Virus record (IMG/VR): IMGVR_UViG_3300045995_000108
Span: 51,429 to 115,428 of that record
Source: a virus
DNA: 64,000 nucleotides
Direction: 5' to 3' (one strand)
The translations under genes and the position numbers were made by a program. Positions 27,981 to 44,649 of this stretch are shown here, piece by piece (within the stretch, counting starts at the first letter, position 1; every line of letters begins with the position of its first letter). The notes beneath the pieces are model-generated. The model saw nothing but the letters and a program-made list of their open reading frames with translations, searched no databases and was not told the DNA's origin.

Positions 27981-30716
27981 ATTAGTTACGTAGACGGCAT
28001 TCACGATAGGGCAAAAGACATAATCCACGTTGTCGAACGTGTGAATGGTGAGCGGGTATACAAAGAGTATCCCGCTAACTATGTCTTTTACCAAGACGAC
28101 GCAAAGGGTAAGTTTCGCACTATCTTTGATACACCTGTAACCAGGTTCAGTTCAAGGTCTGGCAAAGAGTTTCAAAAGGAACTTGCCATGGCTAAGGGCT
28201 CTGGTAAGAAGGTATGGGAAAGCGACTTTAAGCCAATCTTCCGCTGCTTGGAAGAAAATTACCTCCATGCAGCATCCCCAAAGCTACACACAGCATTCTT
28301 CGACATTGAGGTGGATTTCCACCAAGAGAAAGGCTACTCTAAGCCTGAAGATCCGTTCAATGCTATTACTGCGTTCTCAATCTATCTTGACTGGTCAGAC
28401 AAGCTAATTACTTTGGTATTGCCACCTAAGTCGTATAGCTGGGAAACTGCGGAAGAGATTTGCAACAAGTTTGAAAACTGTATCCTCTTTGACAGCGAAG
28501 AAGAAATGCTTAAAACATTCTACGCTATCATCGACGATGCAGACATCTTAAGCGGCTGGAACAGTGAGGGCTTCGATATTCCGTACACTGTTATGCGTAC
28601 TATTCGCATACTGAGTAAGGACGATACTCGCGGCTTCTGCTTGTGGGGTCAACTACCCAAGCAACGTATGTTTGAACGTTATGGTACAGAGTCAATGACA
28701 TTTGATACCGTGGGCCGTGTGCACATGGACTATATGCAACTGTATCGCAAGTACACCTACGAAGAACGTCATTCCTATTCCCTAGATGCTATTGCTGAGT
28801 ATGAGTTGGGTGAGCACAAGACCCCATACGAAGGAACACTAGACCAATTGTACAATCAAGACTTTGCGAAGTTTATTGAGTACAACCGCCAAGATACCAT
28901 GTTGTTATCCAGGCTCGACACGAAGTTAAAATTCATCGACTTGGCGAACGAACTTGCACATGAAAACACTGTGCTATTACCAACCACGATGGGCGCGGTT
29001 GCAGTTACTGAGCAAGCTATCATTAACGATGCTCACAGTAGAGGTATGATTGTTCCTAACAGAAAGGCCAGAGATGAACAAGGTGAAACGCAAGCCGCAG
29101 GTGCCTATGTTGCTAATCCCAAGAAAGGGATTCACAAAGACATCGGAGCAATCGACATTAACTCCCTCTATCCCTCGGCTATTCGTGCCCTCAACATGGG
29201 ACCAGAAACAGTCGTCGGACAACTCCGCCCAATACTGACGGATGCATACTTAAAGAATAAGATGCTGCCTGAGGTTAAGAACGGCAGGACTTATGTGGGG
29301 TGCAGCCTGTCAGAAGCGTGGGAAGGTTTGTTTGGTTCCCTAGAGTACACTGCCGTTATGGACATGGACCCAAGCGTAGAGATTACGATTGACTGGGAAG
29401 CTGACGGCAACAGCACTACACACAGAGCAGACGAAGTTTGGCGTGCTGTGTTTGAAGGTGGTCAACCTTGGCTCCTATCTGCGAACGGTACTATCTTCCG
29501 TTACGACAAGAAGGGCATTGTGCCTGGTTTGTTGGAACGTTGGTACTCTGAACGTAAGGAAATGCAGGCTAAGAAGAAAGCTGCGACAGAGAAGGAAGAT
29601 ATTGCTTTCTGGGATAAGCGTCAGCTAGTTAAGAAGATTAACTTGAACAGCTTGTATGGTGCTCTACTTAACGGTGGTTGCAGGTTCTTTGACCATCGTA
29701 TTGGACAGTCTACTACGCTATGTGGTCGCGTTATTGCACGTCACATGGATGCACACGTTAACGAGGCAATCACTGGTGTTTATGATCACTTAGGTGACGC
29801 TGTAATCTACGGTGACACTGACTCTGTTTACTTCTCTGCTTGGAAGACGATTGAAGCAGATGTTAAAGCAGGCAATATGACATGGGACCGTGATACTTGT
29901 GTGCAACTGTACGACAAGATTGCAGACTCCGTTAACGACAGTTTCCCTACGTTCATGGAAAAAGCATTCCATTGCCCACTTGAGATGGGCGGCATCATCA
30001 AGGGCGGTCGTGAACTGATTGCGTCTCAAGGATTGTTCATTACCAAGAAGCGTTACGCTGTATTGATTTTCGATATGGAAGGTACACGCTACGACTTGAT
30101 GGACGAAGCAACTGCTAAGAAGAAGGGTGTTATCCCGCACACAGGTAAAGTAAAAGCTATGGGCTTGGACTTGAAGCGTTCTGACACACCTAAGATCATG
30201 CAAGAGTTCTTGATGGAAATTCTGACTGACTTGCTTACTGACAAGGGCAAAGACCTTATCATTGACAAGATCAAGACGTTCAAGCAGAAGTTTGCTGATC
30301 TTCCAGCATGGGAAAAGGGCACACCAAAGCGTGTCAATAACTTGACAAGCTATGGGCAAAAGGAAAAAGACTCTACTACTGGTAAAGCTAACATGCCAGG
30401 TCACGTTCGCGCAGCTATCAACTATAACAGACTGAAGCGTTTGTATGGTGATAATGTGTCGCAAAGTATCGTGGACGGTATGAAAACTATTGTGTGCAAG
30501 CTAAAGGATAATCCATTGGGTTATACTAGCGTGGGTTATCCAACTGACTTGGCGCACGTACCGCAGTGGTTTAAAGAGTTACCATTCGACCAAGACAAAA
30601 TGGAGATGACTATCGTGAACCAAAAGGTGGAAAACTTGTTGAGCGTACTTGACTGGGATATTACCGCAAGTACGGACATTAACAGCACCTTTGAATCATT
30701 GTTTAGTTTTGACTAA
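27981..30716 (+). CDS. Family B DNA polymerase (probable ATT start)
   Basis: Exo motifs DIEV, GWNSEGFD, YSLD; pol motifs DINSLYPS, KINLNSLYG, YGDTDS, KKRYA. Confidence 0.95.
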   Translation: MSYVDGIHDRAKDIIHVVERVNGERVYKEYPANYVFYQDDAKGKFRTIFDTPVTRFSSRSGKEFQKELAMAKGSGKKVWESDFKPIFRCLEENYLHAASPKLHTAFFDIEVDFHQEKGYSKPEDPFNAITAFSIYLDWSDKLITLVLPPKSYSWETAEEICNKFENCILFDSEEEMLKTFYAIIDDADILSGWNSEGFDIPYTVMRTIRILSKDDTRGFCLWGQLPKQRMFERYGTESMTFDTVGRVHMDYMQLYRKYTYEERHSYSLDAIAEYELGEHKTPYEGTLDQLYNQDFAKFIEYNRQDTMLLSRLDTKLKFIDLANELAHENTVLLPTTMGAVAVTEQAIINDAHSRGMIVPNRKARDEQGETQAAGAYVANPKKGIHKDIGAIDINSLYPSAIRALNMGPETVVGQLRPILTDAYLKNKMLPEVKNGRTYVGCSLSEAWEGLFGSLEYTAVMDMDPSVEITIDWEADGNSTTHRADEVWRAVFEGGQPWLLSANGTIFRYDKKGIVPGLLERWYSERKEMQAKKKAATEKEDIAFWDKRQLVKKINLNSLYGALLNGGCRFFDHRIGQSTTLCGRVIARHMDAHVNEAITGVYDHLGDAVIYGDTDSVYFSAWKTIEADVKAGNMTWDRDTCVQLYDKIADSVNDSFPTFMEKAFHCPLEMGGIIKGGRELIASQGLFITKKRYAVLIFDMEGTRYDLMDEATAKKKGVIPHTGKVKAMGLDLKRSDTPKIMQEFLMEILTDLLTDKGKDLIIDKIKTFKQKFADLPAWEKGTPKRVNNLTSYGQKEKDSTTGKANMPGHVRAAINYNRLKRLYGDNVSQSIVDGMKTIVCKLKDNPLGYTSVGYPTDLAHVPQWFKELPFDQDKMEMTIVNQKVENLLSVLDWDITASTDINSTFESLFSFD

Positions 30717-30717
30717 T

Positions 30718-31662
30718 ATGAAACTTAGTGAACTAGTTGGATTACGTAACCTGTTGAATGAAAGTATCGCACTAGAAGAAGTTAGGGCATCTACTGAAAT
30801 TCTTTTGCAAAGAATTAGCAGTGTGAGTGACACGATAACCAATGCTGAATATGTAGCATCTATTCATCGTATCCGAGATTATTACGGAGAGATACTTACC
30901 CTGGTAGAGAAGCCACCAAAAGAGTTGCACACCATGCTAGACCAAATTGACGCAAAGATCAATAAACTCACTAAGGATTTCCATAAACGTGGATACATTA
31001 TCAACGGGTTCTTTGCAAGCAATTCTACTGACGTAGACGGGGAGCGCAATCTTAGAACTGTGCCAGTTGCGTCTGACATAAAAAAATTGGTTGGCGCCCG
31101 TATAGATATGCACTCGTCTTGGCAGTATCCTGGCCTAGAGATTGGCCCAGGTGACGGCGAGTGGACACCTATGTTAGTGGCATCCGATCCGTTGTACGTA
31201 ATTGACAACCATCAAGAATTTTTAGATGTGACCGCTAATCAATTTCCTGACGACTACCAACGCAGGCTTCGCAAATATGTCATTGACTTCAGAACAAACG
31301 ACATAACAGAATTGCCCAAAAATCAAATTGGGTTTGCGTTTGCTTGGAATGTGTTTAACTTCTTTCCAGAATACGAATTGAGGCACTACTTAACACAGGT
31401 GTTTGCCGCATTACGACCGGGCGGAACATTGTTGTTTAGCTATAACAACTGTGATAACCCTATCCAGGCTGGATTTGCAGAAGAGGGATGGATGTCGTGG
31501 ATGCCACGCACGTTACTTACTTCTGTGTTAACTGATTTGGGTTACACTGATTTTACATTTTTTGAGCCGGCGCTGAACGTATCATTTGTTGAAGTTAAGA
31601 AGCCTGGAGAAAAGACCACAGTCAAAGCCCATCAAGTTTTAGGTGAAATAAAATTTTCATAA
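30718..31662 (+). CDS. Coiled-coil plus class I SAM methyltransferase-like
   Basis: GLEIGPGDG, LRPGGTLLFSY. Confidence 0.7.
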   Translation: MKLSELVGLRNLLNESIALEEVRASTEILLQRISSVSDTITNAEYVASIHRIRDYYGEILTLVEKPPKELHTMLDQIDAKINKLTKDFHKRGYIINGFFASNSTDVDGERNLRTVPVASDIKKLVGARIDMHSSWQYPGLEIGPGDGEWTPMLVASDPLYVIDNHQEFLDVTANQFPDDYQRRLRKYVIDFRTNDITELPKNQIGFAFAWNVFNFFPEYELRHYLTQVFAALRPGGTLLFSYNNCDNPIQAGFAEEGWMSWMPRTLLTSVLTDLGYTDFTFFEPALNVSFVEVKKPGEKTTVKAHQVLGEIKFS

Positions 31663-31727
31663 CAGTTGATAAATCTAAATACATCTGTTACAATCAACTA
31701 TCAACACGCATACATCACGGAGAAAAC

Positions 31728-32468
31728 ATGCAAGATCATCTATTAGACATCGTCAAACACGCACTGCCAATCGGAATCGAATTGGTCAAGGTTACTGGAA
31801 CTAAAACTGAAACAACTATTAACAGTATTGCAGAAGACCGTTCTGTAATTGTAGAAGCTAAATTCAAAGCGCCAGTCGCTGAATTCAACGGCGTATTCGG
31901 AATGCCAAATTTGGCAAAGCTGAATACTATTTTGGGCATTCCAGAGTACGCTAAGGAAGCTAAGTTGACAATCCTTACCCGCGATGTTGACGTAGACGGT
32001 ACTACGGTTAAGCTGCCAGCTGGCGTTAACTTCACAAACAAGGCAGGCGACTTCAAGAACGACTATCGCTTCATGGGTAAGGAAGTTGTAGAAGACAAAC
32101 TGAAGGCAGTTAAATTCCGCGGTGTTAAGTGGAACGTAGAGTTTACACCAAGCGTTGCAAGCATTCAGCGTTTGCGCTACCAAGCAGCAGCCAACAACGA
32201 AATTACAACCTTTGTGGCTAAGACAGAAAAGGGCGCTTTGGTGTTCTACTTTGGTGACGCAGCATCCCACGCAGGTAACTTTACGTTCGACAACAATGTT
32301 GCTGGTACACTGTCCAAGGCATGGTCGTGGCCCGTTAACCAAGTTATTGCTATCCTTGCACTCGCAGGTGAGAAAACATTCAAGATCTCCGACGAAGGTG
32401 CTGCAATGATTACAGTTGACAGCGGCTTGATTGAATACAGCTACATCATCCCAGCCCAAACAAAATAA
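31728..32468 (+). CDS. Probable DNA polymerase sliding clamp (gp45/PCNA-like)
   Basis: 246 aa, two-domain alpha/beta pattern, C-terminal YSYIIPA, near polymerase. Confidence 0.5.
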   Translation: MQDHLLDIVKHALPIGIELVKVTGTKTETTINSIAEDRSVIVEAKFKAPVAEFNGVFGMPNLAKLNTILGIPEYAKEAKLTILTRDVDVDGTTVKLPAGVNFTNKAGDFKNDYRFMGKEVVEDKLKAVKFRGVKWNVEFTPSVASIQRLRYQAAANNEITTFVAKTEKGALVFYFGDAASHAGNFTFDNNVAGTLSKAWSWPVNQVIAILALAGEKTFKISDEGAAMITVDSGLIEYSYIIPAQTK

Positions 32469-33593
32469 GTGGAGCAGTTTTTCTGTCCGTTACCTTGGAT
32501 ACATCAATTCATTCAAATTGATGGAATCAAGATGTGTTGCGTGAGTAGCACAAGTCTTAATATGACACCAGACGAGTTTAAACACTCTGATTTTATAAAA
32601 GATGTCAAAAAGACTATTACGGATGGAAAAATCCCACACGATTGCCAATCTTGTGTTAAGCAAGAACAACGTGGGGTCAAAAGTGTACGCGAAGGAATTT
32701 TAAAAGACTTTGCATATACTATTGAGACAGTCCCTGATCAAATCGAATATTTAGATTTGCGCCATTCCAATTTGTGCAATTTTTCGTGTCGTATATGCAG
32801 TCCAACATATAGTACCAGTATTAATAGAGAAGTCTTGTCTAATACGAAGCTACTTGCATATTACAGCCCAGTCGAGGTGGGTCTCAAATATGACATTGCA
32901 TCGTCAATTGATTCATTGATTCCCAATTTGTCTAGATTAAACTTAACTGGTGGTGAACCACTAATAATAAAAGAAAATCTGGACATTTTGCAACGCCTAT
33001 TGGATCAATGCCGTAATGATGTGCATTTGCTTATCACAACCAATGCCTCTACATTCAATCCCAAAATATTGAATCTCATTAAGCAGTTTAGTAATGTACA
33101 TTGGACCATAAGCATAGATGGTGTTGACGAAGTTGCTGAATACGCACGGTATGGTACTGATTGGCCTACCGTTCACGCCAATGTTCATCAGATTCTGCAA
33201 CTAAAGCATAGTGTTTCCATAAATGTGACAATCAGTGCATACAGCGTATTAGGATTAGCTGCAACTTGCAATTGGTTTAATTCGTTACGCAATGCGTACC
33301 AAAATCAACCATTAGAGATTATGTTCGGTGTGGCCACAAATGTAGACATTAAATTTCTGCCTATTCATATGCGTAAAAATGCAAAAGAAAATTTAGATCA
33401 GGCCATTGCAGTGATAAGTAATATCACAACCAATCCAGAATCTGAACTAGTTACTCTAAATAGCTTGCGTAATGATTTAAACGATGTTACAATACATAGA
33501 GCAACAACTAAATTCATTCAATTTACTCGTGACTTAGATGCATCAAGAAATCAAAGTTTCGAATCGACATTCAAATTACCTTTAGAAATATGA
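32469..33593 (+). CDS. Radical SAM protein with N-terminal twitch/SPASM-like Cys cluster
   Basis: CNFSCRIC, TGGEP, ISIDG; AT-richer than neighbours. Confidence 0.85.
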   Translation: MEQFFCPLPWIHQFIQIDGIKMCCVSSTSLNMTPDEFKHSDFIKDVKKTITDGKIPHDCQSCVKQEQRGVKSVREGILKDFAYTIETVPDQIEYLDLRHSNLCNFSCRICSPTYSTSINREVLSNTKLLAYYSPVEVGLKYDIASSIDSLIPNLSRLNLTGGEPLIIKENLDILQRLLDQCRNDVHLLITTNASTFNPKILNLIKQFSNVHWTISIDGVDEVAEYARYGTDWPTVHANVHQILQLKHSVSINVTISAYSVLGLAATCNWFNSLRNAYQNQPLEIMFGVATNVDIKFLPIHMRKNAKENLDQAIAVISNITTNPESELVTLNSLRNDLNDVTIHRATTKFIQFTRDLDASRNQSFESTFKLPLEI

Positions 33594-34033
33594 ACCAACA
33601 AGAACGCGACACAATTGAACGCATCAAAGAGAAGGCTGTGCGCCAAATCTTTGTCACTTTCCAAAAGGAAGGCATTCATTGCTATCCTGCCGCAGCCACA
33701 GACCCAATGCTTGCGACAGGTGACCAATACGATGTCTCCTTTTTGGGCACCCCACATCGACACATTTTCCACTTCCGCGTGGACATTGATGTGTTCCATA
33801 ACGACCGCGACATTGAGTTTATTCAATTCAAGCGTTGGCTCGAAAACCTTTACAAGGATAGCATCCTTGCGTTAGACTACAAGAGTTGCGAGATGATCGC
33901 TGACGACTTGTACATTCAAATCGCTGCACGGTATCCTGATCGTGCAGTAAAAATCGAAGTATCCGAGGACGGCGAAAACGGATGCACAATCGAATACAAC
34001 ACCCACCGTCCAAGTCAATTAATTAAGGTCTAA
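33590..34033 (+). CDS. T-fold QueD paralog, DpdL-like (putative CDG decarboxylase)
   Basis: LGTPHRHIF (LxxxHRHxF), SCE, VSEDGENG; upstream of dpdA. Confidence 0.6.
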   Translation: MNQQERDTIERIKEKAVRQIFVTFQKEGIHCYPAAATDPMLATGDQYDVSFLGTPHRHIFHFRVDIDVFHNDRDIEFIQFKRWLENLYKDSILALDYKSCEMIADDLYIQIAARYPDRAVKIEVSEDGENGCTIEYNTHRPSQLIKV

Positions 34034-34034
34034 A

Positions 34035-34292
34035 ATGGCAAAAGAACAATACATGCAAAGTCCCCGTGTACGTCAGGAAATGACTCGTCTCTTCGACGAG
34101 CTTGATGCATACTTGGAGTTCTGCAAAAAGCAGGGCTATGTATTTGACGAGTCCCATCTCTACAACGAGAAGACTCCATGGGGTGAGTGGCAACGTGTCC
34201 TGAACGGGAAGTTTCCCAAGGACAACTGGTCTCCTTACCCTAAGGAAAAGCGTGACTTTTCCAAGCCGCGTTCGCATTTCTCCACTCGTTAA
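34035..34292 (+). CDS. Hypothetical protein
   Basis: ORF in operon. Confidence 0.65.
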   Translation: MAKEQYMQSPRVRQEMTRLFDELDAYLEFCKKQGYVFDESHLYNEKTPWGEWQRVLNGKFPKDNWSPYPKEKRDFSKPRSHFSTR

Positions 34293-34298
34293 TCCTTT

Positions 34299-35933
34299 AT
34301 GCCATATAAAGACGATTTAACGGCGAAGCAAAGCGACTACGCCTACTTTCTACCAGCGTTAAGCGGATTTTATTCCTCTTACGTTGGCAAGCAAAGACAT
34401 GAACAGCACGTAGATGCTGCCCGTATTCCTAAGCGATTTGAAAATGGCATTGAGGGATTAAACTATCTCAATGAAGAAGAAGCTTACTTCAAGTATAAGT
34501 GGTCTCTGTATTCTGCAGGACACGCTAACTTGGATACCACTAAGTTTGATCCGTCTGAGGACATGATTCGCAATCGTTCTAAGAATAGCTTTGTACTTGG
34601 TGACTCTGGTGGATTCCAGATTGCCAAGGGAGTATGGGAAGGCGACTGGCGTGCTAACTCTGGTTGTGCAAAAGCTCAAAAGTATCGCACACAGGTTCTT
34701 GATTGGATGGAAAGCTACATGGACTACGGCATGGGATTAGATATTCCAGGCTGGGTTTGGCGTACCCCAAGGGGTGTGGCTGCAACCAAGATTGAAACTT
34801 ACCAAGAAGCTATGGAAGCTTCCAAGTACAACTTCGAATATTGGATTAAACATCGTCGCGGTAACTGCAAGTTCTTGACAGTTCTGCAAGGTGATAATCA
34901 CGAGCAGGCAGATGAGTGGTATGAGGAGATGAAGAAGTTCTCCGATCCTAAGCATTACCCTAACGAGCACTTTAACGGTTGGGCTATGGGATCGCAAAAC
35001 AAATGCGATGTACACCTTATCTTGAAACGCCTTGTTGCATTGATTTATGATGGATTGTTGGAAGAAGGCAAGCAAGACTGGATTCACTATCTTGGTACAT
35101 CCAAGCTAGAGTGGGCAGTTATGTTTACCGATATTCAACGTGCTATCCGGAAGAACCACAACCCAAGTCTAAGCATTAGCTTTGACTGCGCATCTCCTTT
35201 CCTGGCAACAGCGAACGGGCAAGTGTATTGGGACAACCGTCTTGAAGACGAAGACAAGTGGTCTTACCGTATGATGAAATGTGTGGATGATAAGAAGTAT
35301 GCACTAGATACTCGCATGTTCCGTGATGTGGCAGTCAATGATGGGCATTTCCCATCGTTCATTGACAGTCCAATCATCTCGCGTATGGAAATCAATGATG
35401 TATGTCATTACGGACCAAACGATGTAAACAAGATTGGTAAGATTGGCCGTACGTCGTGGGATAGTTTTGCTTATGCATTGCTGATGGGGCACAACGTCTA
35501 TGCACACATTAAGTCTGTACAAGACAGCAATGAGCGTTACGACCAAGGCATTGTTCCTGAAATGCTGATACACGACATGAAGATGAAGGGTGCGTTTAGA
35601 CAACTCGTCGACGCAATCTTTTCTGCACCGTCCCGTGCTGCCGCTGATAAGTTGGTTAACGAAGAAAGCAATTGGTACTTACAGATTACTGGATCAAGTG
35701 CAAACGGCTTGCTAGGTAAGAAAGCTGTCAATGCAGATACGATGACAGCAAAACACATGGTGATCGAAGGTACCATCCACGATAAGGTTAAGGTTGAAAA
35801 AGTAAAATTCAAACCTGTCGTGATGTCTAACTTGTTCGAGGGTGAAGGCGTGGCAGAATTTGTCCCGCATGTTGACGATTCAGAAATTGACGAAGCACCA
35901 CTTGATGACTTGGAGAAAGCAGATGAGCTGTAA
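34299..35933 (+). CDS. TGT-fold DNA deazaguanine transglycosylase (DpdA-like)
   Basis: DSGGFQ, LDIP, VLQG, WAMG, IHYLG, SFDCASP; folE/queD/queE nearby. Confidence 0.75.
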   Translation: MPYKDDLTAKQSDYAYFLPALSGFYSSYVGKQRHEQHVDAARIPKRFENGIEGLNYLNEEEAYFKYKWSLYSAGHANLDTTKFDPSEDMIRNRSKNSFVLGDSGGFQIAKGVWEGDWRANSGCAKAQKYRTQVLDWMESYMDYGMGLDIPGWVWRTPRGVAATKIETYQEAMEASKYNFEYWIKHRRGNCKFLTVLQGDNHEQADEWYEEMKKFSDPKHYPNEHFNGWAMGSQNKCDVHLILKRLVALIYDGLLEEGKQDWIHYLGTSKLEWAVMFTDIQRAIRKNHNPSLSISFDCASPFLATANGQVYWDNRLEDEDKWSYRMMKCVDDKKYALDTRMFRDVAVNDGHFPSFIDSPIISRMEINDVCHYGPNDVNKIGKIGRTSWDSFAYALLMGHNVYAHIKSVQDSNERYDQGIVPEMLIHDMKMKGAFRQLVDAIFSAPSRAAADKLVNEESNWYLQITGSSANGLLGKKAVNADTMTAKHMVIEGTIHDKVKVEKVKFKPVVMSNLFEGEGVAEFVPHVDDSEIDEAPLDDLEKADEL

Positions 35934-36987
35934 AACTATTTACATCGTGCCAATCGAACCAATCGACGCACGGTACACAAAGCAATGGTACGAGAATATT
36001 CCCAAGATCATTCTTGAAGAAGCGAACAAACGCGACGTACCAATTAAGCTAGTTACTATTGATGGTGCTAAGATTGAGGCTGGCACAACCAGTGGAGCCT
36101 TCCTTGATTTTGGGGCCACCAATGTGTACAAGGCATCGCAATGCGAAGTCGTGTCGCGTATGTTTAGCAGTGGTATTGTCAAGGCTGGTGACAAGTTTCT
36201 TATCACTGATGCGTGGAACTTTATCATCACACCTATCAAGTACATGAGCGACTTGCTTGGTATTCCTGTTGAGATTCACGGCATATGGCATGCCGGTGCA
36301 TACGATCCTTCTGACATCCTTGGATACAAGATGCAAAAGCCGTGGCCCAACCATGCTGAACGCTCGTGGTTCCACTCTTGCGACTATAACTACTACGCAA
36401 CGGACTTCCACAAGGATATGTTCCTGCGTAACTTGGGTATTGAGCCAGAGTATCATCACAAGGCGATTCGTTCTGGACAACCGCATACACCAATCATTGA
36501 ACAATGCAGTCAATATTGGCACACATACAAGACTGGAAAGATGATCTGGCCGCATCGTTATAACGACGACAAGCAACCTGCCATTGCTGAGTCTATTGCG
36601 GAAGTTATCCCCACTGTTATTACACAGAAGATGAACCTGTCCAAAGAGGCTTATTACGAGGAGTTAGGCAAGGCTTCCGTACTATTTTCGTGCAGTTTGC
36701 ATGAGAATCTAGGCATTTCCATCATGGAAGGTGTGTTAGCTGGTGTAATCCCCTTCTTGCCTGATCGCTGCTCTTATTCAGAAATGTATCTCCCAGAGTT
36801 CCTGTATCCATCAGAATGGACCAAAGACTTTGCATCTTTTGAGAAGCATCGTCCATTGTTGCTTCGCTTTATCAATCATCGAATCAATGATCGCTATAAC
36901 TACATGGATGCACTGGAACGCCAACGCGACATTCTCATTGAGAAGTACCTGCAACCAACTGTAATGGTAGACAAGTTGCTTGGCTAA
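35923..36987 (+). CDS. GT-B (GT4-like) glycosyltransferase
   Basis: WPHR...DKQP, HENLGISIMEG (Ex7E); overlaps dpdA stop. Confidence 0.8.
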   Translation: MSCKTIYIVPIEPIDARYTKQWYENIPKIILEEANKRDVPIKLVTIDGAKIEAGTTSGAFLDFGATNVYKASQCEVVSRMFSSGIVKAGDKFLITDAWNFIITPIKYMSDLLGIPVEIHGIWHAGAYDPSDILGYKMQKPWPNHAERSWFHSCDYNYYATDFHKDMFLRNLGIEPEYHHKAIRSGQPHTPIIEQCSQYWHTYKTGKMIWPHRYNDDKQPAIAESIAEVIPTVITQKMNLSKEAYYEELGKASVLFSCSLHENLGISIMEGVLAGVIPFLPDRCSYSEMYLPEFLYPSEWTKDFASFEKHRPLLLRFINHRINDRYNYMDALERQRDILIEKYLQPTVMVDKLLG

Positions 36988-37201
36988 TGTAGATCAAGTT
37001 TGGTGCGATATGTGCAGGCCGCTTTATCCTTGGTTAGAGGACAAGCGGCTTTTGGATCAACGCGACATTCTAATGCAGCTATACGAAGCTTGCACTGCAC
37101 GTGGTCAAGAAATGTACCAAAGCGAAGGCATGGACATTTATCTAGAATACTTAACTTGGTGGAAACTACAATATGTCCTTCGACCTAATCCTAAAGTTTG
37201 A
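36980..37201 (+). CDS. Hypothetical protein
   Basis: Overlapping ORF filling gap. Confidence 0.45.
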   Translation: MANVDQVWCDMCRPLYPWLEDKRLLDQRDILMQLYEACTARGQEMYQSEGMDIYLEYLTWWKLQYVLRPNPKV

Positions 37202-37775
37202 AAAAGAGTTAGCAGAGTTTACTGGCGCTCCGTATGCAATTATGACAGATTGCTGCACACACGCCATTGAACTGTGTCTTCGTTACGAACTACAAGATCG
37301 TCGCTACATAGACAAGGTTGTGTTTACTGCGTTTACATACTTGTCCGTGCCAATGACCTTCCGCAAGATAGGCATTAAGTACGAGCACATTGACTACGAT
37401 TGGACTGGCGAGTATCCGTTCTATGGCACACGTATTTGGGACTCTGCTCGTAGGTTAGAGAAAAACATGTACCGCCCACACTCCTTCCAATGTCTGAGCT
37501 TTGGACAAGGTAAGCCAATCCAGATTGGGCATGGTGGTGCTATCCTAACTGACGATAAGAATGCGTACACCACTATGCTTGCACAACGGTACGACGGTAG
37601 AGACCTAACCATATCCCCATGGCACGACCAAAAGGTGTTTAGGGTCGGCTACCATTACAAGCCAGCAATTGAAGACGCAATGCATGGTTCGGAATTGCTT
37701 AAAGCTTATGCTTGCTATCCAGCTAAACCAATGCATGTGATATATCCAGATTTAAGAAAGATAACAATATTATGA
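37173..37775 (+). CDS. Compact DegT/DnrJ/EryC1 PLP aminotransferase-like
   Basis: FEKELAEFTG, IWDSA, LSFGQGKPIQIGHGG. Confidence 0.75.
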   Translation: MSFDLILKFEKELAEFTGAPYAIMTDCCTHAIELCLRYELQDRRYIDKVVFTAFTYLSVPMTFRKIGIKYEHIDYDWTGEYPFYGTRIWDSARRLEKNMYRPHSFQCLSFGQGKPIQIGHGGAILTDDKNAYTTMLAQRYDGRDLTISPWHDQKVFRVGYHYKPAIEDAMHGSELLKAYACYPAKPMHVIYPDLRKITIL

Positions 37776-38722
37776 ACATTTTAGTATTAGGCGCGGGTGG
37801 GTTCATTGGATCGCATTTAGTAAAAAGACTCAAAAGTGAAGGTCATTATGTCGTCGGTATGGACTTAAAATATCCTGATTTTGACACAACTCACGCAGAC
37901 GAGTTTATTATCACTGACTTGGCAGATGCAAGATCTCTTGTGTTCCCATACCTTGAGTTTGATGAGGTGTACCAACTTGCTGCTGACATGGGCGGAGCGA
38001 CCTACATATTCACAGGGATAAATGATTCGAACATTATGATGCATAGTGTTCGTATAAATTTAAATGTGCTTGACCACTTTAAGGACACAAAAGCAACAAT
38101 CTTCTATTCGTCATCTGCCTGCATTTACCCAGCACATAACCAGCTTGACCCGTCAGATCCTAATTTGGAAGAGTCTTCTGCATACCCAGCCAATCCAGAT
38201 TCTGAATACGGATGGGAAAAACTATTCTCTGAACGGCTGTATCTTGCACATGCAAAAAACCACGGGACTAAGGTTCGTATTGCACGTTACCACAATGTTT
38301 ATGGCCCATATGGCACGTTCGAAGGTGGTAAAGAAAAGGCACCTGCTGCAATATGCCGCAAAGTAATTCAATCCAACGGTGAGATTGAGATCATTGGTCC
38401 AGGATATCAAACACGTTCGTTTTTGTATATTGACGATTGCGTTGATGCAACGATTCAATTAGTACGTAGTGATGTTAACTTTCCTATTAACATCGGATCA
38501 GAAGAAATGGTATCAATCAACCAATTGGTGGACATTGCATCTGCGGTAGAAGGAAAGCAATTGATTAAAAAGCATGTATCTGGACCAGTTGGTGTCGCTG
38601 GCCGCAATTCTGACAATACGTTAATTGAACATTACTTAGGTTGGGAAAGAAAGAATACGTTGTCAGACGGTATCACCAAAACATACAAATGGATTAAATC
38701 CGTCATTGACTCCCGCGTCTAA
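37772..38722 (+). CDS. GDP-mannose 3,5-epimerase-like SDR
   Basis: GAGGFIG, LAADMGG, SSSACIYP, YGWEK, EKAPAAICRK. Confidence 0.85.
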   Translation: MNILVLGAGGFIGSHLVKRLKSEGHYVVGMDLKYPDFDTTHADEFIITDLADARSLVFPYLEFDEVYQLAADMGGATYIFTGINDSNIMMHSVRINLNVLDHFKDTKATIFYSSSACIYPAHNQLDPSDPNLEESSAYPANPDSEYGWEKLFSERLYLAHAKNHGTKVRIARYHNVYGPYGTFEGGKEKAPAAICRKVIQSNGEIEIIGPGYQTRSFLYIDDCVDATIQLVRSDVNFPINIGSEEMVSINQLVDIASAVEGKQLIKKHVSGPVGVAGRNSDNTLIEHYLGWERKNTLSDGITKTYKWIKSVIDSRV

Positions 38723-38752
38723 ATACAGTACAATAAACAATAGGAACAAAAC

Positions 38753-39451
38753 ATGGATAACAGTAAAAATCTTTCTCAATTAATCCGCCGCAAAATGCAA
38801 GGAAGTGGTAAACGCTTTTGGGCAGGCGACAACATTTCTGAATTCGTTAGCGAAGATGCAAAACAACTTCTGATTGACGAAGCTGCTGAAGCATTCGAAG
38901 GAGTGCTGGACGCTTTGTTAATTGATCGGGAGAATGATCCTAACAGCAAAGGCACTGCTCGTCGTCTTGCCAAAATGTACTACAACGAGATCATGTCTGG
39001 TCGTTACGATGCACCACCAGACTGCACTGCTTTCCCAAATGACAGCGATGACCGTTATGAAGGAATGTTGGTTGTTCGTTCAGAATTGAAGTCAATGTGC
39101 TCACACCACCACCAGCCCGTTTCTGGCACTGCGTACATTGGTATCATTGCTGCGCAAAAGCTAATTGGCTTGTCCAAGTATTCACGCATCGCGCAGTGGT
39201 GCGCATTGCGCGGCACATTGCAAGAAGAGTTATGCAACGACATCGCAAAAGAAATTGAAAAGGCAACTGGTTCTGAGAACATTGCAGTTTACATACAGGC
39301 CACACATGGATGCTGCGAAAACCGTGGAATAATGGCCCATTCGTCCCTAACACAAACAACTGTGCTCAAAGGATCATTTAAAAGCGACCCAGGCACTAAG
39401 AAAGAGTTTTTCGACAACATTAATCTACAGCAACAGTTCGCTCCACGATAA
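38753..39451 (+). CDS. folE: GTP cyclohydrolase I
   Basis: SMCSHH, IGLSK, LQEE, HGCCENRG. Confidence 0.95.
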   Translation: MDNSKNLSQLIRRKMQGSGKRFWAGDNISEFVSEDAKQLLIDEAAEAFEGVLDALLIDRENDPNSKGTARRLAKMYYNEIMSGRYDAPPDCTAFPNDSDDRYEGMLVVRSELKSMCSHHHQPVSGTAYIGIIAAQKLIGLSKYSRIAQWCALRGTLQEELCNDIAKEIEKATGSENIAVYIQATHGCCENRGIMAHSSLTQTTVLKGSFKSDPGTKKEFFDNINLQQQFAPR

Positions 39452-39457
39452 TCAAAG

Positions 39458-39486
39458 TTGACTGATAAATCACTTTATTGTACACT
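39458..39486 (+). promoter_or_regulatory. sigma70-type early promoter
   Basis: TTGACT-17-TACACT with the family spacer. Confidence 0.7.
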
Positions 39487-39517
39487 GTGATAATCAACAA
39501 CTCCTGGAGTATTTCTA

Positions 39518-40759
39518 ATGCGTAAATTAGGTCTTGCACTCGCCATTGCTGCTAGTGCATTTTTGGTGGCTTGTGGTGGGGGTGGAGGCGGTGGCAGTCC
39601 TGCAGCCGTGGCACCAACGCCAGTTTCAGTAACGTACAAAGCGTCTGACTGGAATGCAACAATTGCGTGGTGGGACGATTCGACAAATTCTGGGCAGACT
39701 GATGCCTTTGTTAAAGGGATGATTGACAACATTCTGGCAACGGGTTACAGTGGTGTTACATTTTCCTACAAAAACCCAATTGATATGTCGACTGGGCATG
39801 TGCCAGCTTTTGCCACTACAATGGCAAACAACACGCGAATGTTCGCAATGATGGACTATGCGTATTCAAAAGGGCTCAAGGTCAATATCAAAGAATATTG
39901 GACAATGCCTGACAACAGCAACGTCAACCAGTGGAGTGCAAACGATGCCGCAAATTGGTACGATAGTGCAACACCCAATGCGACAAAACCTTATGCCACT
40001 ACATTGCTGGCAGACATGGACACACATTTCACAGCACTTGCAAGCGTTGCACAAGCGCACCACGTGTCAATGATTATCATGGGGTCAGAAAATGACTTCC
40101 TCGCATATAACCAATATCACGCGAATTGGGCAAGTATGGTCTCGCACTTACGTGGCAATGGGTTCACAGGCAAGCTTACTTACGATGCAATTTGGCAAGG
40201 CAAGCAAGGCGAGGCTTTTTACAGTGTCACAGTTTGGGACTTGATGGACAAAGTTTGCTTGTCATTCTTCCCTGACTTCTCTGGTATGCCGCTTACAAAT
40301 GTACAGGATGTTGTTGCACGATGGTCTAGCGTTAACCTTGCGCAAGTTACAAGCCCCTACGCTGACTTGAATGACCCAAATACCCCATTCCCTAGCTATG
40401 TCGCTGAACTACTTGCCATTAGCCAAACTTGGCAAAACAAGGAAATTGTATTTGGTGAAAATGCATACGAGAATTCAGCTACTGCGCTGATGAACTGGAA
40501 CAGTGTGACTCAACTAGTTGCTGGCGGTGTGCAACACGATCCAGTGCAACGTCAATTGGCATTTGAAGCAGAACTGATTGTTCTAAAGACTCCAGTAGCG
40601 CAAGGCGGACTGAAAGGCGTAGTGACAGGCTTTAACTTGATGGGTTACGATCCTTGGGAATACGGTCCAGGACCAATGGCTGTATGGAAAGACTGGGAGC
40701 AACTGACGGGTACTACATCAGAAGCTACTCTTAAGACATATTTGCAAGCTGGACTCTAA
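39518..40759 (+). CDS. Lipoprotein, GH113-like TIM-barrel glycoside hydrolase
   Basis: Lipobox LVAC plus poly-Gly; IIMGSE, FTGKLTY, IVFGE. Confidence 0.6.
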   Translation: MRKLGLALAIAASAFLVACGGGGGGGSPAAVAPTPVSVTYKASDWNATIAWWDDSTNSGQTDAFVKGMIDNILATGYSGVTFSYKNPIDMSTGHVPAFATTMANNTRMFAMMDYAYSKGLKVNIKEYWTMPDNSNVNQWSANDAANWYDSATPNATKPYATTLLADMDTHFTALASVAQAHHVSMIIMGSENDFLAYNQYHANWASMVSHLRGNGFTGKLTYDAIWQGKQGEAFYSVTVWDLMDKVCLSFFPDFSGMPLTNVQDVVARWSSVNLAQVTSPYADLNDPNTPFPSYVAELLAISQTWQNKEIVFGENAYENSATALMNWNSVTQLVAGGVQHDPVQRQLAFEAELIVLKTPVAQGGLKGVVTGFNLMGYDPWEYGPGPMAVWKDWEQLTGTTSEATLKTYLQAGL

Positions 40760-41086
40760 ATGATAGCGTTACCTCCCGGTTGCACTGTCCCGTACACCGT
40801 CCAAATCACAGTTAGTGCACTAACTGACGAGATGATGGAATGGTACGAGATGGTAGGCGGGGAGGTTTCGTCTGTTAACACCAATACGTACAATCGCGCA
40901 AATAAAGAGATCGTAAATAAGCTAGTGCGTTACAATAACTCAAAATGGTGCCATCGTTTTATAGATGGTACAGGCAATGTGAGATTGAACTTTAGCGGAG
41001 AGGACGCTTATGTTGCAAGCGTCTTCCTCATTAAGTTTAACGACGAAATTGTGAATCATAACTTTCGCGAGCATGAGTACAAATGA
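40760..41086 (+). CDS. Hypothetical protein
   Basis: ORF. Confidence 0.65.
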   Translation: MIALPPGCTVPYTVQITVSALTDEMMEWYEMVGGEVSSVNTNTYNRANKEIVNKLVRYNNSKWCHRFIDGTGNVRLNFSGEDAYVASVFLIKFNDEIVNHNFREHEYK

Positions 41087-41095
41087 TAAATAAAA

Positions 41096-41160
41096 GTAGC
41101 GGTCTTGGCATTCACCCCGCTTGCATAAATTCTGTGGCCATGTTACAATACAACATAGGT
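41096..41160 (+). ncRNA. Candidate cis-regulatory pseudoknot RNA (preQ1-I-like topology)
   Basis: AGCGG/CCGCT stem, loop TGGC pairs with GCCA, competing anti-SD hairpin; upstream of denV-queD. Confidence 0.4.
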
Positions 41161-41167
41161 AATCACA

Positions 41168-41569
41168 GTGACTCGCATAAACTCTAATCTTGACCCAAAA
41201 TCTCTCAAGCGTATGCATTTGGTTGCAGAGCTGCGAGAGATCACAATGGTCCCGGCTGCACTACGCCGTTCTTTGCGCACTATACAACCGCAAACCATCA
41301 AACAGAGTATTCCCAAGCAGTTTACTTTGAACGCAGGCCACGTTAAATTCTTTTACGATAAACTTGGATTCTTGCAAAAACGGTTCAACCGTTTAGCAGA
41401 TGAAATGGTGCGCAGAGGTTATTCCCCTGATCGCAGTCGCATCAAAGCATTTGACGGATTTGACAGAATGTGGTATAATGATTGGGATAGCACAGACACT
41501 GATGACAAAATTGTTGTAGAACGCATTAACTTCCGTATCTCACAAAAACCACATTTATACAAGGATTAA
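41168..41569 (+). CDS. denV: Pyrimidine dimer DNA glycosylase (endonuclease V)
   Basis: MTRIN, HLVAELREI, FTL..GHVKFFYDKL, EMVRRG. Confidence 0.9.
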   Translation: MTRINSNLDPKSLKRMHLVAELREITMVPAALRRSLRTIQPQTIKQSIPKQFTLNAGHVKFFYDKLGFLQKRFNRLADEMVRRGYSPDRSRIKAFDGFDRMWYNDWDSTDTDDKIVVERINFRISQKPHLYKD

Positions 41570-41570
41570 C

Positions 41571-42068
41571 ATGACACCCGTTTCTTACAAATTCACTTCC
41601 ACAAAAGAATACATTGACGCTTTCCCATGTGCATATCGCCAATGGCGATCTGACTCGCACTGCAACCTGATTCACGGCTACTCGTTTAGCATGAAGTTCT
41701 ACTTTGGCACAAACGACCTCGACGCACGTAACTGGGCAGCTGACTACGGTGGACTAAAAGAGCTTAAGAAGATTTTGGAATCGCAATTTGACCATACTCT
41801 CATCGTGGCGCAAGATGATCCAGATATGGAAACATTCAAGTTGCTGCAAGACAAAGGCATGGCTAAGATTGTTGTGCTGCCTGCACTTGGTTGTGAAGCA
41901 CTTGCTGACATGCTGTACAAGTATGTGAACGGTGTTTACATTCCGGAAATGTGGGGAGAAGGTGAAGCAAAGCGTCTTTGGTGCTACAAAGTGGAAGTTC
42001 GCGAGACACAAGCTAATATGGCTTATCGTGAGGGTCACCGTGAGTGGAACGAGGACTTGCTTGCATAA
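41571..42068 (+). CDS. queD: 6-carboxytetrahydropterin synthase
   Basis: HCNLIHGY, FDH, GCE, VEVRET. Confidence 0.85.
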   Translation: MTPVSYKFTSTKEYIDAFPCAYRQWRSDSHCNLIHGYSFSMKFYFGTNDLDARNWAADYGGLKELKKILESQFDHTLIVAQDDPDMETFKLLQDKGMAKIVVLPALGCEALADMLYKYVNGVYIPEMWGEGEAKRLWCYKVEVRETQANMAYREGHREWNEDLLA

Positions 42069-42241
42069 TGGATCTTAGTACAGAAGAAATGGAAAGAATT
42101 CTCACTCCTAAAGAGGAGGAGCAGACTTTCCTTATTTTGCAAAACAAATGTCCACACAATGGCGGATGGCGCCATGATGGGCACGGACATAACGATGACG
42201 CATACGTTTGCCTTAAATGTGGCGAAACTAAATGGTGGTAA
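42068..42241 (+). CDS. Small zinc-ribbon protein
   Basis: CPH...CLKC. Confidence 0.55.
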   Translation: MDLSTEEMERILTPKEEEQTFLILQNKCPHNGGWRHDGHGHNDDAYVCLKCGETKWW

Positions 42242-42242
42242 A

Positions 42243-42437
42243 ATGGACATACAAGAATTGTTAGATCAAGAAGCCACACTGAGTAACACAGGCAAAGGCA
42301 AAAGTAATGAGCGTATGGAAATACATACGCTCATTAGGCTGCAACGTTTCCAGCCTGCGCCTATGTGCTTTGGTCACGATGATTGTGGCACTGATAGGCT
42401 ATCTATGTGCCCGTGGAGAATGGATTGCGGAACATGA
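42243..42437 (+). CDS. Hypothetical protein
   Basis: Cys-rich C-terminus. Confidence 0.5.
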   Translation: MDIQELLDQEATLSNTGKGKSNERMEIHTLIRLQRFQPAPMCFGHDDCGTDRLSMCPWRMDCGT

Positions 42438-42550
42438 AAACATTTTGCAAAATAGTAACACCTATTCTTGTGGTGATAGCTGCGATTGCATCAGCTTATG
42501 CCATGGTGGTATATGGTGTCAATGACAACAACCTACCACCAAAGTTATGA
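42434..42550 (+). CDS. Small membrane peptide (38 aa)
   Basis: ATGA-coupled at both ends. Confidence 0.45.
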   Translation: MKTFCKIVTPILVVIAAIASAYAMVVYGVNDNNLPPKL

Positions 42551-42720
42551 AACGGTATACATTTGAATTGACAGTTACAGAAGGTAACAGCGAGTTTTGG
42601 GAAGAGATTCTCGAAAAAGGTAACACAGGCTGCGATGACTTGCTTGAGCAGTTGAAAGACGCTTTAGCAGAACACGGATTTGAGCCCGAGGTTAAACTTG
42701 TGAAGTACGAGGACAAATAA
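42547..42720 (+). CDS. Hypothetical protein (57 aa)
   Basis: Manual translation MKRYTFELTVTEGNSEFWEE... Confidence 0.55.
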   Translation: MKRYTFELTVTEGNSEFWEEILEKGNTGCDDLLEQLKDALAEHGFEPEVKLVKYEDK

Positions 42721-42905
42721 TGAAATACAAACTGGCTTTTGTTAAAGAGTGTAAAGAGTATCGACATGACTTTTGGTACAAAGATGAACTGAAAGAGTTG
42801 ATGGCGAGACACGGCATGAACGAGTTATACGAATCAAAAATAAAACCAGTTCGTAATAACAGGTGGAATCCTAACGAAATATTTGAAGCATTGGAACAAG
42901 AATGA
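42720..42905 (+). CDS. Hypothetical protein
   Basis: Coupled ORF. Confidence 0.55.
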   Translation: MKYKLAFVKECKEYRHDFWYKDELKELMARHGMNELYESKIKPVRNNRWNPNEIFEALEQE

Positions 42906-43129
42906 ACGAACGAATTAAAGAACTTGCTGATCAGGCTTGGCAATATGCCGACAAATACAGCCACGATGGTGATGGCAGACACGGCCACTTGTATCGTAAT
43001 AAGTTCGCCGAGTTGATTGTTCAGGAATGTTGCAGCATTGTCTTGAATACTGAAATCGAGACAAATAATAATGCAATGCTTCGTGGCGAAATTGCATCTA
43101 GGCTTGTGAAATTTATTAAGGAGAATTAA
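42902..43129 (+). CDS. Hypothetical phage protein (MNERIKELA/KFAELIV type)
   Basis: Recurrent small phage family pattern. Confidence 0.65.
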   Translation: MNERIKELADQAWQYADKYSHDGDGRHGHLYRNKFAELIVQECCSIVLNTEIETNNNAMLRGEIASRLVKFIKEN

Positions 43130-43130
43130 A

Positions 43131-44012
43131 ATTTTTGGAACTAATGAAATTATCGGCAAGAAATTTTTCCGGGACGCACCAGCAAACAGCTTGTTTGTGA
43201 CAAGTATGTTCTTCACGTTGCAAGGTGAAGGTCCATACGCTGGTATGCCTGCGTTATTCATCCGTCTTGCAAAGTGCAACCTTGATTGCAGCTTCTGTGA
43301 CACATTCTTTGACGATGGCGATTGGATGACGTTTGACGAGATCGACGAGAAAGTGATTGAAACCATTTCCCGTTACTGGACTGATAAAAACGAAGAAGTG
43401 CCAGACTGGGCAATTAGCCACAAAACATTCGGCCCAGTACATCCTGGTGTTGTGCTTGTTATGACTGGTGGTGAACCATTACTCCAAGAAAACATCTCCC
43501 TGTTTATGACTGGTATGTTGCCAATCTTCAAAGCTGTGCAAGTCGAAAGCAACGGCATTCCTGACACCGTAGTACCAGCTGGCGTTACGCTGGTCTGTTC
43601 ACCCAAGTGTATGGAAAAGAACGGTGTTGCTACTAAGTATTTCTCGCCATCCAAAACTATTTTGGACCGTGCAGACTGTCTCAAGTTTGTAATGAGCGCA
43701 GATGAAGGCAGTCCTTACCACAGTGTACCAGAATGGGCACACGAGTGGAAAGAACGGACCGGCAAAGATATCTATTGCAGCCCGATGAACATTTACAATT
43801 CTTTCCCGCAGCAAATCAAATTGCTACGAGCAGAGAAGGGTGTTATTACGATGGCAGAGCGTTCCACAGTTGACGAGGTCATCTCGTGGTGGGAACCGGG
43901 ATTGCTTGACATGGCAAAGAACGAAGCGAACCATCGTTATGTTGGGCAATACTGTATGCAGCATGGATTCAAGATGCAGATGCAGATGCACTTGTTTGCG
44001 AGTTTAGCATAA
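43131..44012 (+). CDS. queE: 7-carboxy-7-deazaguanine synthase (probable ATT start)
   Basis: TLQGEGP, FIRLAKCNLDCSFCDT, TGGEP, ESNG, CSPK, QMH. Confidence 0.9.
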   Translation: MFGTNEIIGKKFFRDAPANSLFVTSMFFTLQGEGPYAGMPALFIRLAKCNLDCSFCDTFFDDGDWMTFDEIDEKVIETISRYWTDKNEEVPDWAISHKTFGPVHPGVVLVMTGGEPLLQENISLFMTGMLPIFKAVQVESNGIPDTVVPAGVTLVCSPKCMEKNGVATKYFSPSKTILDRADCLKFVMSADEGSPYHSVPEWAHEWKERTGKDIYCSPMNIYNSFPQQIKLLRAEKGVITMAERSTVDEVISWWEPGLLDMAKNEANHRYVGQYCMQHGFKMQMQMHLFASLA

Positions 44013-44137
44013 TGCAACTTACTGCCATCCCATTAGATAAAGACAACAGAATGCTACGTATTGGCTTTGGTAAAAACAACGGCAGTTGGTTTGCTAGAGT
44101 CGATCTGTGGTGCATCGGATTTAGGATTACAAAATGA
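44012..44137 (+). CDS. Small hypothetical protein (41 aa)
   Basis: Coupled at both ends. Confidence 0.45.
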   Translation: MQLTAIPLDKDNRMLRIGFGKNNGSWFARVDLWCIGFRITK

Positions 44138-44364
44138 CACCAGGACAAATATTCAACAAGCGTGTAAGCATTCAGGTAAAGATCTCAACTTGGCAAGCAA
44201 AGATGAAAGAGTTGCAAGATCAGTGCAAGCACGTGAAGGCTGAGCATGTAAACAAAGCATCAACTGGCAACTACGATCCGTCAGCTGATTCGTATTGGAC
44301 TGATCACAAGTGTCCCTCATGTGGTAAGGTTTGGCAAACGGATCAAAAGTGGGATCGCAAATGA
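44134..44364 (+). CDS. Zinc-ribbon hypothetical protein
   Basis: CKH...CPSC. Confidence 0.6.
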   Translation: MTPGQIFNKRVSIQVKISTWQAKMKELQDQCKHVKAEHVNKASTGNYDPSADSYWTDHKCPSCGKVWQTDQKWDRK

Positions 44365-44648: not shown

Positions 44649-44649
44649 C

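Follow-up and report, generated by a model that had tools for sequence, protein, structure and literature searches.

A candidate QueC-less 7-deazaguanine DNA-modification module with a QTMAN-related glycosyltransferase in an uncultured giant phage and its relatives

The closest described system to the locus considered here is that of Cellulophaga phage phiST, where dG is fully replaced by 2'-deoxy-7-deazaguanosine (dDG) via a DpdL-type pathway comprising FolE, QueD, QueE, DpdL with the LxxxHRHxF motif, and a transglycosylase of the tRNA-guanine transglycosylase (TGT) fold, with no QueC (PMC10516641). We have analyzed a 64,000-nt stretch of DNA (positions 51,429 to 115,428 of the IMG/VR record IMGVR_UViG_3300045995_000108; below, the window), which closes a 115-kb fragment from an uncultured giant phage of fresh water, with CheckV completeness of about 29%. 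It encodes the same set of enzymes as phiST, with the same predicted function, the replacement of G in phage DNA, and also a glycosyltransferase (GT) of the GT4 family. No GT of this family is present in phiST, whose DNA contains plain dDG, whereas the window has this GT, a small 85-aa protein (p85), and sugar-nucleotide genes; its transglycosylase, at 544 aa, differs from the 259-aa DpdA3 of phiST and aligns with it weakly (hhalign, 75%, 116 columns only). Sequence comparisons and structural models make it reasonably probable that the locus encodes a 7-deazaguanine DNA-modification module which lacks QueC and includes a GT, and that this GT glycosylates the deazaguanine destined for phage DNA, here probably from a GDP-hexose.

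Three further systems are relevant to the glycosylation step. QTMAN (GTDC1) is a retaining enzyme that mannosylates tRNA queuosine, with GDP-mannose as the donor (bioRxiv 10.64898/2026.06.28.735034). Together with the bacterial QTMAN_N (PF12038) proteins, it belongs to GT4 and shows near full-length profile homology to the phage GT; moreover, it glycosylates a 7-deazaguanine derivative within a nucleic acid via GDP-mannose, and the phage GT has a GDP-mannose epimerase homologue nearby. QTMAN differs in its tRNA substrate and its acceptor, the queuosine cyclopentenediol, whereas the phage GT is linked to DNA replication genes. The huimycin cluster of Kutzneria albida likewise has homologues of FolE, QueD and QueE along with a SAM methyltransferase, and its enzyme HuiG places a sugar on a free 7-deazaguanine-derived base, namely, GlcNAc onto the 2-amino group of O6-methylated preQ0 (PMC7439116); glycosyltransferases encoded in huimycin-family clusters are annotated as PF13439 (bioRxiv 10.64898/2026.04.15.718813). 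HuiG, likened here to the phage GT by description, is an N-glycosyltransferase of secondary metabolism, encoded with QueC and without DpdA. Finally, the alpha- and beta-glucosyltransferases of T4 are phage GT-B enzymes that add sugar to a pre-modified DNA base, 5-hydroxymethylcytosine, for restriction evasion, and serve as a functional model for glycosylation after base insertion; they belong to other GT families, act on a pyrimidine with a defined hydroxymethyl acceptor, and are not among the listed structural matches of the phage GT. To our knowledge, all eight described deazaguanine DNA marks lack a sugar, and we know of no glycosylated purine in DNA.

In the proposed pathway, FolE, QueD and QueE would produce 7-carboxy-7-deazaguanine (CDG), which would be converted by the DpdL homologue, the proposed product being 7-deazaguanine, as in phiST. 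The divergent TGT-fold DpdA-like enzyme would swap guanine in phage DNA for the deazapurine, and the GT would move a sugar from a nucleotide sugar to the deazaguanine, either as the free base prior to insertion or once it is part of DNA. A glycosylated deazapurine in phage DNA would result, and might protect it from restriction. In the lineage of the window, the epimerase homologue suggests a donor of the GDP-L-galactose or GDP-L-gulose type, which the DegT-like protein may tailor.

All genes named in the original prediction are present on the plus strand, at the positions it gave them, as are the other genes of the window discussed below. The GT gene (35923-36987; 354 aa) does overlap the dpdA-like one (34299-35933), as had been proposed: its ATG at 35923 lies 11 nt ahead of the dpdA stop codon (TAA, 35931-35933), yielding an 11-nt overlap, and is preceded by GGAG 7 nt upstream. 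The start is supported by the aligned N-termini of 23 homologues. The GT has no direct match in Pfam, PHROG or NCBIfam; the Pfam family PF00534 (Glycos_transf_1) yields an E-value of 0.065 for the window protein, under the cut-off, and matches 16 of its 24 relatives, with the best E-value of 9e-6. A match among PDB sequences to the designed Kelch repeat protein 8pjx has been rejected as spurious, as it consists of short repeated 6-bit segments. In the Atlas, the GT matched viral GT clusters and nothing else.

The structural model of the GT (pLDDT 92) is a compact GT-B fold of two Rossmann domains. It aligns by VIA-align over about 300 residues (Z 21-26, 3.0-3.5 A) with the retaining GT4 enzymes sucrose-phosphate synthase (SPS), BshA, MshA, PglA, LmbT and PimA. 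R212, K217, E261 and E269, that is, the phosphate-binding Arg/Lys of the donor domain and the ExxxxxxxE motif, are invariant in 24 relatives, so that the assignment of the protein as a GT-B glycosyltransferase carrying Ex7E holds both by the modelled fold and by these glutamates. Many aromatic and polar residues are also invariant in the N-terminal, acceptor-side domain. Judged by these residues and the model, the GT looks catalytically competent and suited to one fixed acceptor. The family is acidic (pI 4.9-6.3).

By profile comparison, the GT is specifically related to QTMAN rather than to GT4 enzymes at large, since the GT profile, run against all six frames of five whole bacterial genomes, retrieved the QTMAN_N gene as the sole match at E-values up to 10, hhalign of the GT with bacterial QTMAN_N proteins yielded 97.2% (E 4.7e-11) over 290 columns including the region of the N-terminal RxxQW motif, and the search of PDB sequences with the same profile gave no GT4 enzyme at E 1 or better. 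The bacterial proteins come from a sample of 401 Pseudomonadota genomes, 28 of which are matched by the QTMAN_N model; six of these proteins were compared with the phage GT, whose HMM scores them at 25-48 bits.

The DpdA-like protein is recognized mainly by structure. Neither it nor a 40-sequence profile of its family matches any PDB sequence, and the protein also lacks matches in Pfam, PHROG and NCBIfam, including the Pfam TGT family PF01702, which is matched by two of 40 relatives (E about 0.007). The AlphaFold (AF2) model has pLDDT 86.6, with residues 467-529 disordered, and the first 50 PDB structures ranked by Foldseek are without exception tRNA-guanine transglycosylases (E about 1e-6, probability 1.0, target TM about 0.5). 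All 40 relatives keep D102 (in GDSGGFQ) and D296 (in SFDCASP), and nearly all keep D148 (in LD). The motifs suggest that these three aspartates serve catalysis and substrate binding as in TGT, and by motif similarity we take D102, D296 and D148 to be the counterparts of D102, D280 and D156 of Zymomonas mobilis TGT. The family is aligned by hhalign with DpdA of Acidovorax phage ACP17 at 95%; given this value and the weak similarity to phiST DpdA3, we call the protein a divergent DpdA-like one and assign it to no named subfamily. Probably, judging from sequence, it is a divergent transglycosylase separate from the named DpdA subfamilies. The metagenomic family comprises more than 7,700 proteins (E up to 1e-3) in 896 clusters at 50% identity, none of them labelled by Pfam. 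The protein of the window may act on DNA rather than tRNA, the context for this being its replication-gene neighbours and the restriction resistance of DNA of the related phage PA5oct. The C-terminus (residues 467-544; 35700-35933) consists of the disordered stretch followed by a strongly acidic tail, DDSEIDEAPLDDLEKADEL. By analogy, this tail resembles partner-docking tails of phage replication proteins and may link the exchange of bases with the replisome. Complex prediction for DpdA (residues 1-466) and the GT gave scores of 0.01, 0.42 and 0.01, and is used neither for nor against an interaction.

The pathway upstream of base insertion is of the QueC-less, DpdL type, since a DpdL homologue is present and QueC is not found. 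The homologue (33590-34033; 147 aa), a T-fold paralogue of QueD and the proposed CDG decarboxylase, carries L-GTP-HRH-I-F, i.e., the LxxxHRHxF signature defining DpdL (PMC10516641), in place of CxxxHGH of QueD, and has 36% identity with phiST DpdL (gp040/CGPG_00067; BLASTP E 2e-18). It is accompanied by the FolE, QueD, QueE and DpdA-like genes. No QueC was found in the 115-kb record, representing about 29% of the genome; it is also absent from the complete genomes of PAC2 (a PA5oct-like phage), ACP17 and Phosso, in a search that detected QueC in 14 of 14 controls. FolE, GTP cyclohydrolase I (38753-39451; PF01227, E 3e-38), is the next gene after the epimerase, as had been described. QueD-like 6-carboxytetrahydropterin synthase (41571-42068; PF01242, E 4e-15; phrog_2389, E 1e-35) retains the CxxxHG motif, and the QueE-like radical SAM CDG synthase (43191-44012) matches phrog_2076 (E 1e-43). 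The small basic protein p85 (34035-34292), located between dpdL and dpdA, has no family or Atlas match; tblastn identified homologues of it in 58 related loci, almost always flanked by dpdL on one side and the GT gene on the other, and the median gap between DpdL and GT of about 236 nt is consistent with an ORF of this size. It may be a fourth core component of the module.

The linkage of the GT to this pathway was assessed in 80 IMG/VR loci collected from the DpdA side and 77 further loci collected from the GT side. In the former, DpdL and GT are both present in 39 of 39 loci with at least 6 kb of sequence downstream of DpdA, and in 47 of 49 with at least 4 kb. In the latter, all 55 loci with 7 kb upstream contain DpdL, and 51 contain a DpdA-like gene; FolE is present in 47 of the 50 loci with 7 kb downstream. 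This association of the GT with the module is far beyond chance. The usual gene order in the relatives is DpdA ... DpdL-p85-GT-FolE, the tight unit being mostly DpdL-p85-GT-FolE and not DpdA-GT; DpdA is directly upstream of the GT, as in the window, in several sublineages, and directly downstream in others. Hence the suggested adjacency of dpdA and GT is borne out in part: the GT is constant in the module, and the overlap with dpdA is one of several arrangements. GT-like proteins number 962 in metagenomes, and about 600 viral contigs were retrieved per search. Megablast of the locus against phage records gave no match; the locus itself was found in riverine, pond and wetland metagenomes.

In four loci with no apparent GT, a distant homologue of about 400 aa is encoded in or near the module, in three of the four at the GT position (hhalign 98% for the two tested). 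These homologues, all from one sublineage, are at L074:11590-12792, L078:10631-11920, L061:12149-13327 and L067:9713-10894. In L074 and L078, an SDR epimerase/dehydratase gene and a DegT-like gene directly follow, which suggests a different sugar. A distant GT (23% identity) from PhiXhv-12-like phages (L166:3669-6903) was set aside as belonging to a different glycosylation system; it is adjoined by GlmS and a BshB-like GlcNAc-malate deacetylase, and no Que genes are annotated nearby.

The same linkage is observed in cultured phages. Of the phage records in which the GT was matched strongly, 17 of 17 contain DpdL. PA5oct-like Pseudomonas jumbo phages have the order DpdA-GT-DpdL ... PRTase-QueE, and in PAC2 the GT start abuts DpdA. 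Acidovorax phage ACP17 has QueD-FolE-x-DpdA-GT-DpdL-QueE, with the GT start overlapping the dpdA stop, in Sinorhizobium phage Phosso the GT overlaps DpdL, and in Xanthomonas phages X1 and BUDD the GT precedes a different, annotated TGT-type DpdA. The DpdAs adjoining the GT in cultured phages constitute at least two divergent clades. Two local features deserve mention. In PA5oct-like phages (PAC2, L001:12422-13380), a short protein with an epimerase domain and another protein with a phosphoribosyltransferase domain are encoded between DpdL and QueE, hinting at a nucleotide-level (pre-replicative) branch. In X1 (L167:4338-4871), a PAPS-reductase-family (PP-loop) protein, encoded between FolE and GT-DpdA-DpdL-QueE, could be a QueC-like activating enzyme.

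Moreover, in three alphaproteobacterial isolates (Sulfitobacter, L179:5354-10309; Azospirillum, L177:5487-10202; Aurantimonas, L178:3685-7062; genus and coordinates respectively) the GT gene stands beside a DpdA-like gene and a gene for a small membrane protein, whose sole family match in all three, under the cut-off, is the queuosine-precursor transporter. DpdL is also present in Aurantimonas. In Sulfitobacter and Azospirillum, the DpdA-like gene is adjoined by a gene for a 538-585-aa protein with no family match, the two proteins not being detectably alike. The flanks contain STAND NTPase and signalling genes and are not phage-like, and from this composition the cassette may be a DNA-modification or defence island. 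As the GT is linked with such genes in viral contigs, cultured phages and bacterial cassettes alike, it follows deazaguanine handling, with the base made de novo or possibly imported.

The sugar-supply genes are more variable. The SDR protein of the window (37772-38722; 316 aa), located two genes downstream of the GT, is a full-length homologue of GDP-mannose 3,5-epimerase (GME), matching structures of plant and other GMEs (2c59, 8sg0) over residues 2-313 (phmmer E 2e-85, 290 bits), with other SDR families at E 5e-24 or weaker; the original identification of this gene is supported by this. In view of this homologue and of the use of GDP-mannose by QTMAN, a GDP-hexose is indicated as the probable donor in the window lineage. 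The protein encoded just upstream (37173-37775; 200 aa) had been described as a compact PLP aminotransferase. It is DegT-like (PF01041, E 5e-15, over profile positions 26-94 and the lysine region), and its lysine in SFGQGK (SFxxxK) aligns with the 9bgp lysine region and is kept by all 18 homologues; residues 8-78 correspond to residues 34-102 of the 9bgp chain, and residues 104-144, to 175-215. However, about 70 internal residues and the entire C-terminal domain are missing, compared to about 370 aa of the complete two-domain fold, which makes its activity uncertain, and the protein is too shortened to be confidently called an aminotransferase.

In about 17 related loci the GT is followed by a DegT-like gene, a few have other SDRs at this place, and sugar-tailoring genes of the SDR and DegT-like kinds reappear between GT and FolE in several sublineages; none of the 157 related loci showed the epimerase homologue itself at high identity. 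The epimerase and DegT-like genes are lineage-specific accessories, and the idea that they form core parts of the system has to be abandoned, both being missing from most relatives. By analogy, this recurrent and changeable sugar kit resembles the variation of the sugar on hydroxymethylcytosine in T-even phages, and it may itself be taken as an argument that the GT truly transfers a sugar.

The remaining genes of the locus are as follows. The replication block is opened by PolB (28041-30716), followed by a class I SAM methyltransferase (30649-31662; PF13649/PF08241), whose gene lies between PolB and a clamp-like protein (31728-32468) and was seen in 29 of 84 scanned related loci. Next is an N-terminal-twitch radical SAM protein (32469-33593; NF033640, 267 bits, over the cut-off), which overlaps dpdL by 4 nt and has weak homologues (25-48%) in six related loci. 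The radical SAM protein and the methyltransferase are possible extra tailoring enzymes for the base or the sugar. From the radical SAM gene through FolE, adjacent genes overlap or stand a few bases apart. The small ORF noted after the GT, p73 (36980-37201; 73 aa, TTG start), does exist and overlaps the DegT-like gene by 29 nt, which in turn overlaps the epimerase gene by 4 nt; nevertheless, p73 is doubtful as a gene, having no homologue in the 157 related loci, and it has no family match. Between FolE and QueD are genes for a predicted lipoprotein (39518-40759; 413 aa; signal peptide ending in LVAC, then a Gly run), a 108-aa protein and DenV, which are lineage-specific or unrelated. The lipoprotein has no family match and no homologue in the 157 related loci, and by these comparisons looks like a lineage-specific insertion within the module. 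Scans of the locus for promoters and terminators gave background levels only, and an Rfam search (E up to 1) over 28000-46000 yielded a chance miRNA match and nothing else; no preQ1 riboswitch family was matched, the stretch 41087-41167 included.

Several observations weigh against the glycosylation of deazaguanine destined for DNA. Plain 7-deazaguanine, should that be the product of DpdL, would give the GT no obvious hydroxyl to glycosylate; CDG offers a carboxylate. The acceptor of QTMAN, the queuosine cyclopentenediol, has no known biosynthetic genes in the phage, and the Pfam QTMAN_N model does not recognize the N-terminal, acceptor half of the phage GT, with no match at E up to 1 among 24 relatives and none in the whole record. 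DpdL occurs without this GT in phiST-like phages (plain dDG in phiST itself), RHph_I1_18 and others, and so the GT is an add-on, not required for deazaguanine insertion. Most relatives lack the epimerase and DegT-like genes. Finally, because the GT family is acidic and its structural neighbours act on small molecules, DNA is not favoured over the free base as the acceptor. The acidity, the structural neighbours and the position between DpdL and FolE make us lean slightly toward a free-base acceptor, later inserted by DpdA; in huimycin and dapiramicin, free deazaguanine bases are glycosylated on the 2-amino group (PMC7439116). The analogy with QTMAN leans toward action on the polymer. The suggestion that the GT takes part in deazaguanine modification gains from the survey in that the GT is a constant, motif-intact member of a QueC-less DpdA/DpdL module and a relative of QTMAN, and in that the GME homologue fits a GDP-sugar donor.

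The position of the GT between DpdL, which has a T-fold, and FolE in most loci also fits another role, in which the GT glycosylates a small molecule or by-product of the pathway that never reaches DNA. An example would be a pterin glycoside, such as cyanobacteria make with tetrahydrobiopterin glucosyltransferase, FolE and a T-fold enzyme of the PTPS type. Pteridine glucosyltransferase structures are indeed among the GT matches (9v0l, Z 21.8; 5zes, Z 21.3), the best-matching solved GT4 enzymes use small acceptors, and the acidity of the family agrees with this. Still, the pterin enzymes are no nearer than about 35 other GT4 structures, the sequence relative of the phage GT is QTMAN and not BGluT, the GT is accompanied by a DNA transglycosylase (the DpdA-like gene in 51 of 55 loci), and the bacterial GT stays with DpdA-like and deazaguanine-precursor-transporter-like genes with no FolE or QueD nearby, so we regard this role as unlikely. 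The two enzymes might also act on phage or host tRNA and form a glycosylated queuosine-like RNA base, as TGT and QTMAN do in animals: the closest characterized relatives of both work on tRNA, Pfam does not separate DpdA from TGT, and DNA chemistry is known for no member of this DpdA-like subfamily. We find this improbable, as the module sits amid PolB, clamp and other replication genes in every lineage, the QueC-less DpdL-type set modifies DNA in phiST, every phage deazaguanine system tested to date modifies DNA (PMC10516641), and several restriction enzymes whose sites contain G fail to cut PA5oct DNA (PMC12191111).

Two other explanations seem to us very improbable. Phage GT4 enzymes often act on O-antigen or proteins, and the GT could have an unrelated target, such as host envelope glycans or a virion or replisome protein, and travel with the module in a shared early or middle operon. 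This is at odds with the persistence of the linkage through shuffling of gene order, exchange of DpdA clades and the move to bacterial chromosomes without phage genes, with DpdL in 17 of 17 phage records, and with the high conservation of the acceptor-side residues, hardly expected for variable host glycans. Alternatively, the GT-fold protein could perform other chemistry, e.g., activation of the CDG carboxylate as a glycosyl ester, or be a non-catalytic accessory subunit of DpdA, as DpdB serves bacterial DpdA; in the window and ACP17 its gene begins ahead of the dpdA stop, in PAC2 it abuts dpdA, and DpdA3 with DpdL are inactive alone in E. coli (PMC10516641). A non-catalytic or non-glycosylating role agrees poorly with the invariance of donor-binding and catalytic residues and with the recurrence of sugar-nucleotide tailoring genes beside the GT.

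The preferred reading, glycosylation of deazaguanine bound for DNA, may be extended to cultured phages. Expression of ACP17 dpdL and dpdA alone in E. coli gave no dDG, and the authors proposed that further enzymes may be needed (PMC10516641); by its position next to dpdA, the GT of ACP17 is an obvious candidate for such a missing enzyme. The same 2023 paper, which defined DpdL and DpdA3, makes no mention of sugar or glycosyl groups, and our literature search found no paper that ties a glycosyltransferase to DpdA/DpdL or reports glycosylated deazaguanine in DNA. In addition to its restriction resistance, PA5oct DNA is attacked by a nuclease family sensing hypermodified DNA (PMC12191111). We give somewhat less than an even chance to the broader conjecture that PA5oct-like phages, ACP17, Phosso, X1 and others carry a glycosylated 7-deazaguanine in place of G, the first sugar-bearing purine in DNA, put in by a QTMAN-related enzyme with lineage-specific sugars (in the window lineage, of the L-galactose/L-gulose type, from GDP-mannose, perhaps tailored further), and that the three-gene bacterial cassette of precursor-transporter-like, GT and DpdA-like genes likewise modifies chromosomes.

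Overall, the module is predicted from sequence to combine DpdA-based deazaguanine modification of DNA with an added glycosylation step, its member in the window being marked by the direct dpdA-GT overlap and the GME homologue. PA5oct-type phages are candidates for use against Pseudomonas aeruginosa and targets of END nucleases, which sense hypermodified DNA. The module is common, and the interest in it is high because GT-bearing phages already in culture make a direct test possible. If the prediction is true, it would constitute a new class of DNA hypermodification, with consequences for restriction and modification-dependent defence, for the sequencing and cloning of phage DNA from the environment, and for the question of how the animal queuosine mannosyltransferase arose in evolution.

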